NCBI GenBank assembly: GCA_022705905.1
Contig: JAKJDO010000001.1
Coordinates: forward strand, 28,692 to 92,691
Source: Patescibacteria group bacterium
GTDB taxonomy: Bacteria; Patescibacteriota; Patescibacteriia; Patescibacteriales; UBA12075
DNA: 64,000 bases
Direction of reading: 5' to 3'
The translations under genes and the position numbers were made by a program. Every line of letters starts with the position of its first letter. The stretch's first letter is position 1. The notes under the pieces were generated by a model. That model had not been told where the DNA came from. It saw only the letters and a program-made list of their open reading frames with translations, and ran no database searches. Shown here piece after piece: positions 42,679 to 57,275 of the stretch.

Positions 42679-42918
42679 TTATATAAGATGTTTTTTGGTA
42701 AAAGCGTAGCCTGAGCTTGATTTTAAATATTTTTCAAAACTATATGCCTTTTGTTTTTCAACAAAAGCAGAATACCAAACCAGAATATATGGTCGTTTTA
42801 TATTTGAATATCTGGTTTTTCCAGAATTGTGTTCATGTATTCTCCGCTTTAAATCAGATGTCGCCCCTATATATCGGCTACGATCTTTTTCGCTTTGAAG
42901 AATATAAACGTAATACAT
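42679..42918 (-). CDS. GIY-YIG nuclease-family small protein (YhbQ/UPF0213-like).
   Basis: MYYVYILQSEKDRSRYIGATSDLKRRIHEHN is a GIY-x10-YIG motif. It is a paralog of the 50700-51017 gene. Confidence 0.65.
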   Translation of the reverse strand: MYYVYILQSEKDRSRYIGATSDLKRRIHEHNSGKTRYSNIKRPYILVWYSAFVEKQKAYSFEKYLKSSSGYAFTKKHLI

Positions 42919-43035
42919 AACTTTGTTGCCCCACTCCGCTAGGCTTCGCGGGGCACCACTTCACTTTTTGATATAACTATTTTATTTTTATATGTGCGTG
43001 CACCGCGTAGCTTGGAGTAAAAGCGACAAGCGAAG

Positions 43036-43111
43036 TGGTGGACCGTACCGGGATCGAACCGGTCACCTCCTGCGTGCAAAGCAGGCACTCTACCAGATGA
43101 GCTAACGGCCC
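43036..43111 (-). tRNA. tRNA-Ala (anticodon TGC), CCA encoded.
   Basis: Manual fold. Acceptor GGGCCGT/ACGGTCC, anticodon loop TTTGCAC, T-loop GGTTCGATCC. Confidence 0.8.
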
Positions 43112-50096: not shown

Positions 50097-50149
50097 AATA
50101 TTTAATAAGTAATAATAAAAAACAGGTACTTTACCTGGTTTTTTACAGA

Positions 50150-50707
50150 TTAATCGTTACGATTGAATAACACCATATTATATCTTCCACCCTGTTTTGT
50201 CAAGTCCTGCTCAACGCCCAAATTCAAACCCTCTCTGGTCTGTAAATGTTTTACAAAATCTCTGATTGTTTCAGCGCCCTTCTCTGGAAATTGCTTTTCG
50301 CGCCCTTTAAGCATCAGCTCTATCTTCAATTTATCGCCTCTTTTTAAAAATTTCTCTGCCTGCTCAGCGCGCATTTCTGAATCATGCTGGCTAATTCTAA
50401 CTGACAGTCTAACGCATTTTAATTCCACTTTTTTCTGCTGAACTTTCTGCTTATGCGCCTTCTTTTCCTGCTCGTATTTAAATTGACCGTAATCCATTAT
50501 CTTAACCACCGGACATTCGCCTTTAGGATTAACTTCAACTAGATCCGATTCTGCTTCACGCGCCATTGCTAATGCTTCTTGAATACTAATCCGACCTCGA
50601 TTTTCTCCATTTTCATCAATCAGAAAAACCTCGGGTACACGAATTTGTTCGTTGACCCTAAATCGTTTTTCTTCGGTTGGTTTCGCTTTTTTCCAAGTTC
50701 TACGCAT
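50150..50707 (-). CDS. infC: Translation initiation factor IF-3.
   Basis: INEQIRVPEVFLIDENGE.. and the infC-rpmI-rplT gene order. Confidence 0.85.
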   Translation of the reverse strand: MRRTWKKAKPTEEKRFRVNEQIRVPEVFLIDENGENRGRISIQEALAMAREAESDLVEVNPKGECPVVKIMDYGQFKYEQEKKAHKQKVQQKKVELKCVRLSVRISQHDSEMRAEQAEKFLKRGDKLKIELMLKGREKQFPEKGAETIRDFVKHLQTREGLNLGVEQDLTKQGGRYNMVLFNRND

Positions 50708-51017
50708 AAAATGAGTGGCTACCCGCCAATTGGGCGGGCTCTCGACCTTGGCAAGGTCGCCCTTTAACTAAAGTGTTATTTAAAATCTTTTGGAGATCTT
50801 CTCTGCCGTGTCCAGTCTTAAAAAATCTTTCTCTTTTTCTTGCATCAATCTCATCTATAAACGCTTCGGCAAATATCAATTTGAACAATCTTCTATTTCT
50901 AGTAGATTCATTCGCTCCGTCGTTATGTTTTTTAATTCTTTCATCTAAATTTTCTGTGTAACCAATATATAATTTTTTATCTTTCAAACTTCTTAAGATG
51001 TAAACGTAATAAAACAT
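50700..51017 (-). CDS. GIY-YIG nuclease-family small protein. Its C-terminal tail reads through a tRNA-Gly-derived repeat.
   Basis: MFYYVYILRSLKDKKLYIGYTENLDERIKKHN motif. The gene is wedged between tRNA-Gly and infC. Confidence 0.6.
   Translation of the reverse strand: MFYYVYILRSLKDKKLYIGYTENLDERIKKHNDGANESTRNRRLFKLIFAEAFIDEIDARKRERFFKTGHGREDLQKILNNTLVKGRPCQGREPAQLAGSHSFYA
50739..50760. repeat. 22-nt exact duplicate of the tRNA-Gly anticodon-arm region (ctctcgaccttggcaaggtcgc; tRNA copy at 51061-51082) plus an adjacent pseudo-T-arm (cccgcc-aattg-ggcggg).
   Basis: Exact match seen in the sequence. It lies at the distal end of the GIY-YIG gene. Confidence 0.55.
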
Positions 51018-51032
51018 CTTTTTTATATTTCA

Positions 51033-51107
51033 TGGAGCGGGTAACGGGAATTGAACCCGTCTCTCGACCTTGGCAAGGTCGCATAATAGCCACTATACGA
51101 TACCCGC
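51033..51107 (-). tRNA. tRNA-Gly (anticodon GCC), CCA encoded.
   Basis: Manual fold. Acceptor GCGGGTA/TACCCGC, anticodon stem CGACC/GGTCG with loop TTGCCAA, T-loop GGTTCAATTCC. Confidence 0.8.
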
Positions 51108-51160
51108 CTACGTTCTGCTTCGACAGAACTCCGGCGGGGCAAGTCCGCCAGTTTTTCCGT

Positions 51161-51185
51161 GTCATTCCCGCGAAAGCGGGAATCC
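51161..51185. repeat. Hairpin repeat GTCATTCCCGCG-aaa-GCGGGAATCC (family copy 2).
   Basis: Perfect 8-bp stem with a GAAA loop. A GC hairpin ggcgg-ggcaagt-ccgcc plus T-run precedes it at 51132-51155. Confidence 0.5.
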
Positions 51186-51323
51186 AGAAAATTGTAGGAA
51201 ATAAAATTCTATACGAAAAAAGTTAAGAAATCAAAGATTCTTAACAATAATTATTATAGAGTAAAACTATTTTTTTGGCAAGGGCTTGAAAATAAGATAA
51301 AATTATGTTATAGTCCGAAAGAT

Positions 51324-51800: not shown

Positions 51801-51866
51801 GTCATCCTGAACGAAGTGAAGGATCTCGCAATTAAAAACAAGATTCTTCGCTTTGCTCAGAATGAC
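51801..51866. repeat. MITE-like inverted-repeat element. Arm gtcatcctgaacgaagtgaaggatctcg, 12-nt spacer, inverted arm agattcttcgctttgctcagaatgac. It lies between smpB and ssrA.
   Basis: The two arms are imperfect reverse complements and belong to the GTCATYCTGAGCG family. Confidence 0.5.
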
Positions 51867-51874
51867 AAAAATAC

Positions 51875-52848: not shown

Positions 52849-52932
52849 GCCGTGGTGGCGGAACTGGTAGACGCGCTGGACTTAAAATCCAGTTGTGGCG
52901 ACACAGTGAGGGTTCGATTCCCTCCCACGGCA
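52849..52932 (+). tRNA. tRNA-Leu (anticodon TAA) with a long variable arm.
   Basis: Manual fold. Acceptor GCCGTGG/CCACGGC, anticodon loop CTTAAAA, T-loop GGTTCGATTCC. Confidence 0.85.
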
Positions 52933-52935
52933 CAA

Positions 52936-56501: not shown

Positions 56502-56844
56502 TAAATTAATGAAAAAGGCTAGTTTATCTATTGATAACTAGCCTGAATGCCTCTTTATAATATCACGTCCCTGACTACTTGTCAAATTTAAAACAATATG
56601 ATAGCATTTACTTTGATAGTCAGAGACGACTATTTCTTTTTTTCAAGTCGGTTTTTCTATAAAATTTTAGCTGAGCGGCAGTCTTGTCTGGCTGCAATCC
56701 CACTGGAGATGAAGAATGGTTAGTTTAATTAACTGCCCTCAAAAACTTGCCAGGCTCGTCTTGCGTGTCGTGCGGGAAACGCCGCCCTGTCAAGGTCTAC
56801 AAATAAATTTATAAAATACACCTAATTAATAAAACCTTCAGCGC

Positions 56845-56919
56845 GGAGTGGTAGTTCAGTTTGGTTAGAACGCCGCCCTGTCACGGCGGAGGTCGCGGGT
56901 TCGAGCCCCGTCCACTCCG
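56845..56919 (+). tRNA. tRNA-Asp (anticodon GTC), flanked by an extended inverted repeat (ccttcagcgc...gcgctgaagg) and followed by a T-run.
   Basis: Manual fold. Acceptor GGAGTGG/CCACTCC, anticodon stem CCGCC/GGCGG with loop CTGTCAC, T-loop GGTTCGAGCCC. Confidence 0.8.
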
Positions 56920-57275
56920 CGCTGAAGGTTTTTTATTTTGGCGAGTCACGGTGGTAAGGATCTGTCTCGTTTGCCCGCCCAAAGCCGCAAGTATTTGCGA
57001 CGAGAGTAGTCTGCTCCATAAATGATAAAATGGTCTCAATAAAAAAACCTTTTTTGTTTTAATGGAGATCTTAATCAAAAGATGTTAAAATAAAAACAAA
57101 GTTAATTTAAAAAACATGCTACTAATAATAATCCTAATCATTTTTATCCTGATGGCTGGCGCTGCAATTTATCTTGGCGCTAAAGAAGACGAGAAAAAGA
57201 AAAAATAATTTTCAAAAAGACGACATAAAAAAACAACCTCAGAATTTTAAGGCTGTTTTTTTTATTAAAAATTTA

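Follow-up and report, generated by a model that had tools for sequence, protein, structure and literature searches.

A miniature GIY-YIG nuclease gene and a tRNA-derived hairpin module between tRNA-Gly and infC: a candidate selfish cassette of Patescibacteria

The 64-kb stretch of contig JAKJDO010000001.1 analysed here (as a whole, the window) carries, between an intact transfer RNA (tRNA) gene for glycine and the translation factor gene infC, a small GIY-YIG nuclease gene that is followed by a partial copy of the same tRNA, and it is this arrangement, read throughout on the minus strand, with which we are concerned. The tRNA-Gly(GCC) gene (51033-51107), which has an encoded CCA end, was recognized by ARAGORN and by the Rfam tRNA model (57.7 bits), and an AT-rich spacer of 15 nucleotides (nt; 51018-51032) separates its CCA end from the ATG of an open reading frame (ORF) of 105 amino acids (50700-51017). 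Residues 1-83 of this ORF (50769-51017) represent a conserved GIY-YIG catalytic domain, and residues 84-105 (50700-50768) form a non-conserved C-terminal tail that reads through into a tRNA-derived module. The module begins with a 22-nt copy (50739-50760), 100% identical, of tRNA nt 26-47, the stretch of the tRNA-Gly that makes up its anticodon arm and variable loop, continues with a GC hairpin of 6-7 base pairs, CCCGCC-CAATT-GGCGGG, in the place of the T-arm (50722-50738), and ends with a tag resembling the 3' strand of the acceptor stem, TAGCCAC-TCA (TAGCCACTCA; 50712-50721), which was delimited by comparison with four related loci (L009, L010, L096 and L097) and which reads TACCCGC-TCA in relatives. 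The far copy therefore reads, on the coding strand, GCGACCTTGCCAAGGTCGAGAG, CCCGCC-CAATT-GGCGGG, TAGCCAC-TCA, TTTT and the ATG of infC, the end of the tag lying 4 nt 5' of that ATG. The ORF terminates at a TAG (50700-50702) inside infC, with an overlap of 8 nt between its end and the infC start (50700-50707). Initiation factor 3, the product of infC (50150-50707), was identified from the ORF list and from Pfam IF3_N and IF3_C matches in identical contigs, and its gene is followed by rpmI and rplT. In a repeat search the 22-mer CTCTCGACCTTGGCAAGGTCGC was found exactly at 50739-50760 and 51061-51082, at a spacing of 322 nt, and no other stretch of the tRNA-Gly of 14 nt or more recurs in the window.

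A consensus scan located a promoter-like site upstream of the tRNA-Gly (TTGCCA-17-TATAAT, 11/12; 51253-51281), a motif that is present also in L091, an allele of this locus that lacks the nuclease gene. The same scan found neither a promoter-like nor a terminator-like site between the tRNA-Gly and the GIY-YIG ORF, and on the minus strand from the promoter-like site to the end of infC it found no terminator-like site at all, the single downstream one (50123-50137) lying after infC. Since no terminator-like site stands in between, tRNA-Gly, the GIY-YIG gene and infC probably constitute one transcription unit; on the other side of the tRNA-Gly, smpB and the transfer-messenger RNA (tmRNA) gene diverge from it. 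A 481-nt region of the locus is identical over the compared bases in eight assemblies that come from different samples of the same species (Parcubacteria bacterium ADurb.Bin316-like), the comparison having covered 481 nt in seven of them and 415 nt in the end-truncated L007.

The window contains one further GIY-YIG ORF, of 79 amino acids (42679-42918), which lies 117 nt from the 3' end of a tRNA-Ala gene on the same strand; besides these two, the 64 kb hold none. The two paralogues are 39% identical to each other, and both stand within 120 nt of a co-oriented tRNA, a position that a random 280-nt gene would take up relative to a co-oriented tRNA or tmRNA gene of this tRNA-rich window (9 tRNAs and one tmRNA in 64 kb) with p = 0.042. 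On all these points the initial annotation, which had been made from the letters alone, proved accurate: ARAGORN and the ORF list agree on two small GIY-YIG genes close to tRNA 3' ends, the exact copy of the anticodon arm does lie at the far end of the first gene with the C-terminus of the ORF reading through it, and the PF01541 profile that it named for a check matches both products, the 105-residue one with 58.3 bits (expectation value, E, 1e-15) and the 79-residue one with 58.8 bits (E 7e-16), against a cut-off of 22.6.

What kind of nuclease is encoded can be perceived from its conserved part. Homologues measure 79-92 amino acids and align to residues 1-83 of the 105-residue ORF only. Tyr6, Tyr17, Arg27, His31 and Glu63 are invariant among 19 aligned sequences, and no invariant Asn follows Glu63 in that alignment. 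The AlphaFold2 model (mean predicted local distance difference test score, pLDDT, 75) arranges the chain in the order beta-beta-alpha-beta-alpha-alpha and retrieves GIY-YIG structures with Foldseek; residues 87-105 are modelled as disordered (pLDDT below 50). A profile of the family matches, among entries of the PDB, the UPF0213 protein BH0048 (1zg2) with E 3e-13, EF2693 (1ywl) with 2e-9 and SLX1 with 2e-4, and Foldseek likewise places 1zg2 and Slx1 on top, with I-TevI at E 0.5. Because both the profile and the fold matches rank UPF0213 and SLX1 above I-TevI, the protein is, as far as sequence and model allow it to be classified, a GIY-YIG nuclease of the Slx1/UPF0213 (YhbQ)-like type that is predicted to comprise the catalytic domain only, with no DNA-binding domain. 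Scans against PADLOC, PHROGs and NCBIfam gave motif-level matches only (in PADLOC with E 1e-3 or weaker), and the locus does not count among the known anti-phage defence systems. The family is large, with 5,728 clusters at 50% identity (E of 1e-3 or lower) in a library of representative proteins, and many of its database entries carry N-terminal extensions of 20-70 amino acids, as would be expected if gene callers ran through stop-free, GC-rich modules.

The same locus exists in relatives both with and without the gene. Alleles were found through the neighbouring infC, and InfC identity served as a ruler of relatedness. The tRNA-Gly/infC site is empty in the three closest relatives, L091, L092 and L093 (InfC 90, 88 and 82% identical), and in L094 (70%), the spacer between tRNA-Gly and infC measuring 28, 37, 55 and about 120 nt, respectively. 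Neither a GIY-YIG gene nor a module lies between the two genes in L091, L092 and L093; at the L091 and L092 junctions, which are free of nuclease gene, tRNA fragment and hairpin alike, the alignment with the window breaks exactly at the 3' end of the tRNA and at the ATG of infC. The intact tRNA-Gly of the window is identical to that of L091 and L092, that of L093 differs at one base of the variable loop, and the sequences following the tRNA-Gly are not conserved among the empty alleles. Occupied alleles are those of the window, L009 (InfC 78%), L010 (59%) and L097 (62%), and the nearest homologues of the nuclease, which are 81% (L009) and 69% (L010) identical to it, are both encoded between tRNA-Gly and infC. 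Their layouts differ. L009 has, in this order, an intact tRNA, a module, the GIY-YIG gene, another module and infC. L010 has a chimeric tRNA, true to the tRNA over nt 1-47 and continued by the hairpin and an acceptor strand, which folds as a cloverleaf and is followed by the GIY-YIG gene, an intact tRNA and infC. A scan of metagenomes for the pattern of hairpin plus acceptor strand returned three further loci: L097 is an allele of the L010 type, L096 (InfC 62%) has an intact tRNA, a solo module and infC with no GIY-YIG gene, and L095 has two modules, again with no such gene. Occupied alleles stand among empty ones on the InfC tree, and this patchy occupancy necessitates at least three or four events of gain or loss. 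A second case of presence and absence was seen at a tRNA-Leu locus: in the stretch 598-1008 of L094 a GIY-YIG gene lies 9 nt upstream of tRNA-Leu(UAA), and none accompanies the tRNA-Leu locus of the window (52849-52933) or that of L091.

Every occupied tRNA-Gly/infC allele contains the same hairpin module, before the GIY-YIG gene, after it or on both sides. The hairpin, CCCGCC-N5-GGCGGG with a loop of the form NNATT, is the same in the window, L009 (twice), L010, L095, L096 and L097, and it is kept in genomes whose InfC proteins are 56-78% identical, a divergence at which neutral intergenic DNA can no longer be aligned. The tRNA-derived part of the module, on the other hand, matches the tRNA of its own genome: GTCGAGAG is found in the window and GTCGAAAG in the L009 tRNA as well as in both L009 modules, so that, for example, the variable loop reads GAGAG versus GAAAG. 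Because the hairpin is conserved and the fragment matches the resident tRNA, the fragment is a maintained part of a unit rather than a decaying scar of insertion, which is how it and its 'pseudo T-arm' had originally been interpreted. That the hairpin is simply a common genomic repeat was considered and rejected for the window, where CCGCC-N3-12-GGCGG occurs twice against 0.14 expected, the other occurrence being the anticodon arm of tRNA-Asp. The hairpin could serve as a substrate of the nuclease, as an operator or as a stabilizer of the 5' untranslated region. The observation that the regions upstream of the gene fold better as sense than as antisense RNA in 41 of 54 loci was set aside as uninformative about function at the RNA or the DNA level; composition-matched shuffles give the same bias (mean -2.6 versus -2.9 kcal/mol, p = 0.83). 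At the E-value threshold, Rfam recognized nothing but tRNA and tmRNA in the window between 42 and 53 kb and in 13 related loci, with no family for the hairpin modules or for two other structured elements described below, the double-hairpin spacers and the element preceding the second gene.

The nuclease gene itself has diverged in parallel with its surroundings, the identities to L009 and L010 being 81 and 69% for the nuclease, versus 78 and 59% for InfC, 79 and 71% for L35, and 78% for L20. This divergence in step with the ribosomal neighbours marks the gene as a long-term resident and not as a recent arrival. Judging from these comparisons, the GIY-YIG gene is under purifying selection and has either been at this locus for long or moves only between close relatives.

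Beyond this locus, association with genes for stable RNAs is a property of the whole family. When one genome per GTDB species was scanned, at least 540 relatives were recovered, and the best 80 loci were examined. A tRNA gene lies within 300 nt in 53 of these 80 and is on the same strand in all 53; among the other 27, eight abut a tmRNA gene and one the RNase P RNA gene, all nine in co-orientation, which brings the loci beside a co-oriented RNA gene to 62 of 80. With roughly 45 tRNA genes per 0.6-1 Mb in such genomes, chance adjacency would amount to a few per cent. The linked tRNAs represent at least 14 amino-acid specificities, most frequently Ser, Asp, Gly and His, and in a neighbor-joining tree the clades of the nuclease follow the type of tRNA and the layout, examples being the clades for His, for Ser(UGA) and for tmRNA and the one for tRNA-Gly to which the window belongs. 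Several diverged paralogues occur per genome, each next to a different RNA gene. The family is systematically tied to tRNA genes, and partial duplications of the tRNA go with it. The GIY-YIG genes of L012 and L076, which are linked to tRNA-Gly, are not near infC, and it is thus the tRNA and not the infC locus that is the constant partner. The tmRNA-linked genes (L014, L042, L043, L072, L051, L052, L088 and L089) lie 0-230 nt from the co-oriented tmRNA, the RNase P RNA-linked one (L044) abuts its RNA gene, and the CCA end of the tmRNA is followed by the same kinds of palindromic spacers as are found after tRNAs. In L051, L052 and L088 (4870-5450) the order is smpB, GIY-YIG gene, tmRNA and infC, the nuclease gene occupying the gap between smpB and ssrA; infC stands after the tmRNA gene in this lineage, versus after tRNA-Gly in the window.

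Two layouts prevail among the tRNA-linked loci. Where the tRNA lies downstream (22 loci), a significant copy of the 5' part of the tRNA precedes the ORF in 20, at 50-120 nt before the ATG, and 18 of these copies start at tRNA nt 1. In the loci that were inspected, a GC hairpin or perfect palindrome breaks this copy, mostly in the region of the D-loop and sometimes in the anticodon or T loop, and another 4-12 nt of tRNA sequence come after it. The breakpoint is constant within a clade, and even where the tRNAs differ between genomes the copy agrees with the one in its genome. In L032 (3627-4315) a unit of tRNA-Pro nt 1-15, hairpin, 10 tRNA nt and GIY-YIG ORF is found twice in tandem before a single intact tRNA-Pro. 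Where the tRNA lies upstream (31 loci), the space between CCA and ATG is filled with structured palindromes, and a clade coming mostly from Microgenomates has a conserved double hairpin, ACGTAATAAATT...AATTTAAACGT and ACGTTTAAATT...AATTTATTACGT, the two being joined by TGCTGG into a palindrome of 70-80 nt that is followed by yyCGCC, an echo of the tRNA 3' end, and that is unknown to Rfam (L016, L017, L024, L031, L034, L035, L040, L053, L058, L063, L066, L067, L070, L071, L078, L084 and L085). A hairpin related to it lies, with no GIY-YIG gene, between tRNA-Gly and infC in L094. A 3' fragment of the tRNA after the nuclease gene was found in 3 of the 31 loci, as well as in the window and in L009. 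Throughout the class one intact RNA gene is always spared, and it is often accompanied by a partial copy of itself which a hairpin or palindrome interrupts or follows. That the cassette brings in a whole tRNA and splits the resident one was tried as a general rule and rejected, as a clear 3' remnant after the intact tRNA exists only in L013 and L030 (p = 0.0) of the 22 loci with a downstream tRNA; L010 has one by eye as well, and L090 is marginal (p = 0.01). In L013 (4334-4424) the intact tRNA-His is directly followed by a full-length copy of itself in which two GC hairpins replace the anticodon arm, and which ARAGORN reports as a 93-nt 'tRNA-Arg', an annotation trap.

How can these observations be brought together? 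The sequences themselves present the anatomy, presence and absence at the same site, alternative arrangements, a solo module, a tandem array, the association with RNA genes and purifying selection, and the cassette of the window is one member of a large class in Patescibacteria that lodges beside co-oriented genes for stable RNAs (tRNA, tmRNA, RNase P RNA). We propose, with moderate confidence, that the locus is a minimal selfish cassette which settled in the tRNA-Gly/infC transcription unit and which has been changed by recombination via its tRNA-derived repeats, probably stimulated by the nuclease. Such a cassette would consist of an ORF of about 250 nt for the GIY-YIG nuclease and of a module derived from tRNA-Gly, with the anticodon arm, the GC hairpin substituting for the T-arm and the acceptor 3' strand. 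It would probably be expressed by read-through from the promoter of the RNA gene, because all 62 RNA-linked loci are co-oriented, no promoter- or terminator-like site separates the ORF of the window from tRNA-Gly and the stop of that ORF overlaps the start of infC. Gain, loss and rearrangement would proceed by recombination through repeats identical to the tRNA, and a single unit of about 340 bp, composed of tRNA nt 1-47, hairpin, acceptor tag, spacer and GIY-YIG gene, could account for all arrangements of the Gly clade. If this unit recombined with the chromosomal tRNA within the 47-nt block, the L010/L097 layout (chimeric tRNA, GIY-YIG gene, intact tRNA) would result; if it did so within the 10-nt acceptor tag, the layout of the window (intact tRNA, GIY-YIG gene, module) would. 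Deletion of an L009-type allele from module to module would leave the solo-module footprint of L096, and deletion of an L010-type allele from repeat to repeat would restore a clean empty site. Slx1 is a structure-specific nuclease. By analogy, the nuclease described here probably starts or stimulates these events by cutting structured DNA, be it the hairpin or cruciform or a tRNA gene folded as a cloverleaf, and probably does not read a long DNA sequence; cutting of DNA structure would fit the location of breakpoints in tRNA loops. In the layout of the window, a deletion between the two 22-nt copies would produce a tRNA lacking its T-arm, and the arrangement should therefore be hard to lose, which may explain its fixation.

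A number of points weigh against this proposal. Clean empty sites are not derivable from an arrangement of the window type by simple recombination between repeats. Because the identities of the nuclease among the window, L009 and L010 parallel those of InfC, L35 and L20, vertical descent with repeated loss is, on these comparisons, about as good a fit to the locus as repeated gain. No near-identical copies of the tRNA-Gly clade were found in distant genomes, and recent spread within the genome is not indicated either, because the paralogues of the window are only 39% identical. No far-side tRNA fragment accompanies 28 of the 31 tRNA-upstream loci. As to phages and viruses, neither tblastn searches of 50,697 phage records nor an IMG/VR contig scan returned a homologue. 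The choice of a given tRNA gene is unexplained for a protein of about 80 amino acids that has no DNA-binding domain. Finally, because the intact tRNA is identical in occupied and closest empty alleles (L091 and L092), which differ only in what follows it, the immunity that insertion into a classical homing site usually confers is not evident.

The protein could instead be a domesticated or housekeeping host factor acting on stable-RNA genes or on their transcripts, for example by resolving structures at highly transcribed tRNA genes or by processing tRNA-mRNA co-transcripts, with the module as a cis-acting RNA or DNA element and the patchiness as the product of vertical inheritance and frequent loss. 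We grant this alternative some, if limited, likelihood. Divergence in step with InfC, L35 and L20, the invariance of the catalytic residues, the maintenance of the hairpin module across deep divergence and the identity of the arrangement in eight independent assemblies of the species all agree with it, as do the earlier judgement that Slx1/UPF0213 proteins are vertically inherited and a TrmH fusion that hints at RNA metabolism (PMC1564403). Yet the closest relatives, in which the site is clean, apparently manage without the gene; a conserved housekeeping gene with no empty sites, the outcome against which the initial annotation had set its proposal, is not what L091-L094 present at this exact locus. 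Several diverged paralogues exist per genome, each at a different RNA gene; partial RNA-gene duplications, a tandem array and a solo module are typical of insertion and excision and would not be expected of a fixed operon; and the subfamily of the second gene has differing neighbors in each genome despite 65-85% identity.

The proposal that had been made at the outset, a mobile gene resembling a homing endonuclease, is upheld by the empty sites, the patchy occupancy and the ties to tRNAs; as regards the enzyme it is not, since a Slx1-like protein with no DNA-binding domain is not of the I-TevI or Seg type. In its strict form it would have a sequence-specific endonuclease cut the uninterrupted tRNA-Gly/infC junction, or the tRNA, and be copied in by double-strand-break repair, with the tRNA fragment as the displaced end of the native gene, as in fungal mitochondrial mobile ORFs. 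We regard this as quite unlikely. The coexistence of empty and occupied alleles and the layout of an endonuclease ORF with a duplicated part of its target gene, comparable with that of the mobile ORFs of Allomyces and Glomus (PMC3630166), speak in its favor, and so does SegB of phage T4, a homing enzyme of the GIY-YIG type whose gene lies in a cluster of tRNA genes (PMC2330249). A protein of 83 conserved residues which is nearest to Slx1/UPF0213 (I-TevI only at a Foldseek E of 0.5) is, however, a poor candidate; no private target site is visible, given the identical tRNAs of occupied and closest empty alleles (L091/L092) and the non-conserved sequences that follow them; what is duplicated has exactly the sequence of the resident tRNA and is not foreign; and the hairpin is left unexplained. 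The direct repeat of a tRNA part on the far side of the insert is also the usual att signature, and the locus could on this account be what remains of a larger integrase-borne island or prophage in tRNA-Gly, decayed to an att-like repeat and a cargo nuclease gene. But with repeats 322 nt apart, a single 105-residue ORF, no trace of an integrase, a repeat that represents the anticodon arm instead of the tRNA 3' end, a compact layout that recurs at many tRNAs and in dozens of genomes, and no phage or viral homologues, this origin is very improbable. Coincidence, that is, an ordinary small gene close to tRNAs in a tRNA-rich window and a 22-mer deriving from an unrelated tRNA pseudogene, is scarcely credible: the chance of adjacency, low for one gene, would have to apply to both, the 53 nearby tRNAs in other genomes are co-oriented without exception, and the hairpin module is conserved in six further genomes, in L009, L010, L096 and L097 at this very locus. 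The family-wide statistics already contradict such a reading. A group I intron in a tRNA gene was likewise considered and rejected, the tRNA being contiguous and no intron family appearing in the Rfam scans of the window and the 13 related loci.

Known systems share single features with these cassettes. In size, in the Tyr/Tyr/Arg/His/Glu set and in having no conserved C-terminal Asn, the nuclease is like the Slx1-like/UPF0213 proteins (YhbQ, BH0048, EF2693; PDB 1zg2, 1ywl). A survey of 2006 concluded that prokaryotic Slx1-like proteins are inherited vertically and that the selfish GIY-YIG enzymes derive from another, UvrC-like lineage (PMC1564403); unlike the vertical, repair-like UPF0213 proteins as described there, the genes reported here are multi-copy, polymorphic at a particular site and associated with RNA genes as well as with hairpin modules. 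Closest in principle, among what is known, are the fungal mitochondrial mobile ORFs (Allomyces macrogynus atp6; Glomus atp6, atp9, cox2 and nad3; PMC3630166), in which, as here, an endonuclease ORF is placed within or beside an essential gene, part of which is duplicated along with it, the functional copy being kept and the fragment standing on the far side, and in which presence and absence vary among close relatives. The present cassettes differ in that the host is a bacterial gene for a stable RNA, that its duplicated pieces match the resident copy exactly instead of being foreign, that a conserved GC hairpin takes the place of part of the fragment or interrupts it, that the nuclease of about 80 amino acids comprises the catalytic domain only, and that their mobility is a proposal. 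T4 SegB (PMC2330249) is similarly encoded by a free-standing GIY-YIG gene among tRNA genes, not in an intron, and is inherited preferentially along with its flanks; Seg enzymes and I-TevI are of the UvrC-like lineage and carry a DNA-binding domain at the C-terminus, whereas the present proteins lack such a domain and belong to that of Slx1/UPF0213. As with tyrosine-integrase elements, a tRNA gene is the landing site and stays intact, with a partial tRNA repeat at the far end, but there is no recombinase gene, the insert measures only about 0.32 kb, and which portion of the tRNA is repeated, its 5' part, its middle or its 3' end, varies with the clade. Group I introns that lie within tRNA genes of the same host phylum also make a tRNA gene host to a selfish element; unlike them, the cassettes show no ribozyme (no Rfam match), and the tRNA is intact and contiguous, with the ORF beside it instead of inside. 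The paper on those introns lists HNH, LAGLIDADG and PD-(D/E)XK enzymes and does not mention GIY-YIG. In the full-text literature, whose coverage leaves out most subscription journals, we found no description of tRNA-linked cassettes with Slx1-like GIY-YIG nucleases, and the class linked to tRNA, tmRNA and RNase P RNA genes is apparently undescribed.

If the proposed reading is confirmed, the Slx1/UPF0213 branch, regarded as a vertical line of repair type, would include a large selfish radiation for which, in Patescibacteria, stable-RNA genes are the landing sites, and a hairpin-marked partial duplicate would be a new way of keeping the host gene intact upon insertion. It would also explain many of the short 'GIY-YIG nuclease family protein' calls, the over-long ORF predictions and the odd tRNA-like fragments in genomes of the Candidate Phyla Radiation, and it would offer a tractable pair, an 80-residue nuclease and a hairpin of about 45 nt, for structure- or module-directed cutting of DNA. 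In practice, the cassettes can be used as presence/absence markers between close strains, and they are a source of tRNA mis-annotation, as the 93-nt call in L013 illustrates. A bolder view, which we think rather unlikely, is that cassettes of about 0.32-0.4 kb are the smallest autonomous mobile elements known, an 80-residue structure-specific nuclease being combined with a module derived from an RNA gene as its targeting or recombination device; the module may then act as portable homology, or as a guide, handle or operator, and entry and exit may proceed without a recombinase or a sequence-reading domain.

The second GIY-YIG gene of the window belongs to a highly conserved subfamily of 79-residue proteins (65-85% identity in 553 clusters, across Patescibacteria) whose neighbors differ in every genome examined. 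Between it and tRNA-Ala(UGC) (43036-43111, minus strand; ARAGORN) lies a structured element (42919-43040) to which the CCA end of the tRNA is fused and which precedes the ORF in all six genomes compared, the window included. In it CACCACUUC and GAAGUGGUG form a long-range helix, the 5' strand of which takes in the final 5 nt of the tRNA; it further has a covarying hairpin, the motif CUACGCGGUGCACGCA and at least one GC hairpin about 10 nt before the ATG. In an RNAalifold consensus of the six genomes, 9 pairs are invariant and 7 show compensatory changes. The 5' strand of the helix starts with the last five nt of a tRNA in four of the six, namely of Ala(UGC), Ala(GGC), Ala(CGC) and Lys(UUU), and in the two genomes in which no tRNA is nearby the element still has CCACCA or ACACCA. 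The inverted repeat that the initial annotation had noticed in this gap, and that includes the 3' end of the tRNA, is real: on the minus strand CACCACTTC at 43040-43032 pairs with GAAGTGGTG at 42962-42954, and the repeat is conserved in the five other genomes. It is the long-range helix of the conserved element, and this element precedes orthologues of the second gene, among them two that have no tRNA nearby.

Other structured sequences surround the tRNA genes of the window. Just 5' of tRNA-Gly (51108-51149, minus strand) a leader hairpin, GTTCTG-TCGAAG-CAGAAC, is followed by CGTAG directly before tRNA nt 1; L009, L010 and L093 have at this position a hairpin whose stems differ and are nevertheless complementary, and because L093 has it in the absence of a GIY-YIG gene, the leader hairpin is independent of the cassette. 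A second GC hairpin upstream of tRNA-Gly, GGCGGGGCAAGTCCGCC, lies at 51133-51149. Between tRNA-Gly and smpB there is a GC-rich palindrome, GTCATTCCCGCGAAAGCGGGAATCC (51161-51185), with a partly complementary piece just before the tmRNA gene (51849-51867), and the two look like copies of a small dispersed palindromic repeat. Upstream of tRNA-Asp (56845-56920, plus strand), at a distance of 50 nt, 15 nt of the anticodon arm of this tRNA, AACGCCGCCCTGTCA, are repeated exactly (56778-56792); no GIY-YIG gene is near, and the copy could be the solo remnant of a former cassette. The same tRNA-Asp is bracketed (56834-56929) by an 11-nt inverted repeat of leader and trailer, ACCTTCAGCGC and GCGCTGAAGGT.

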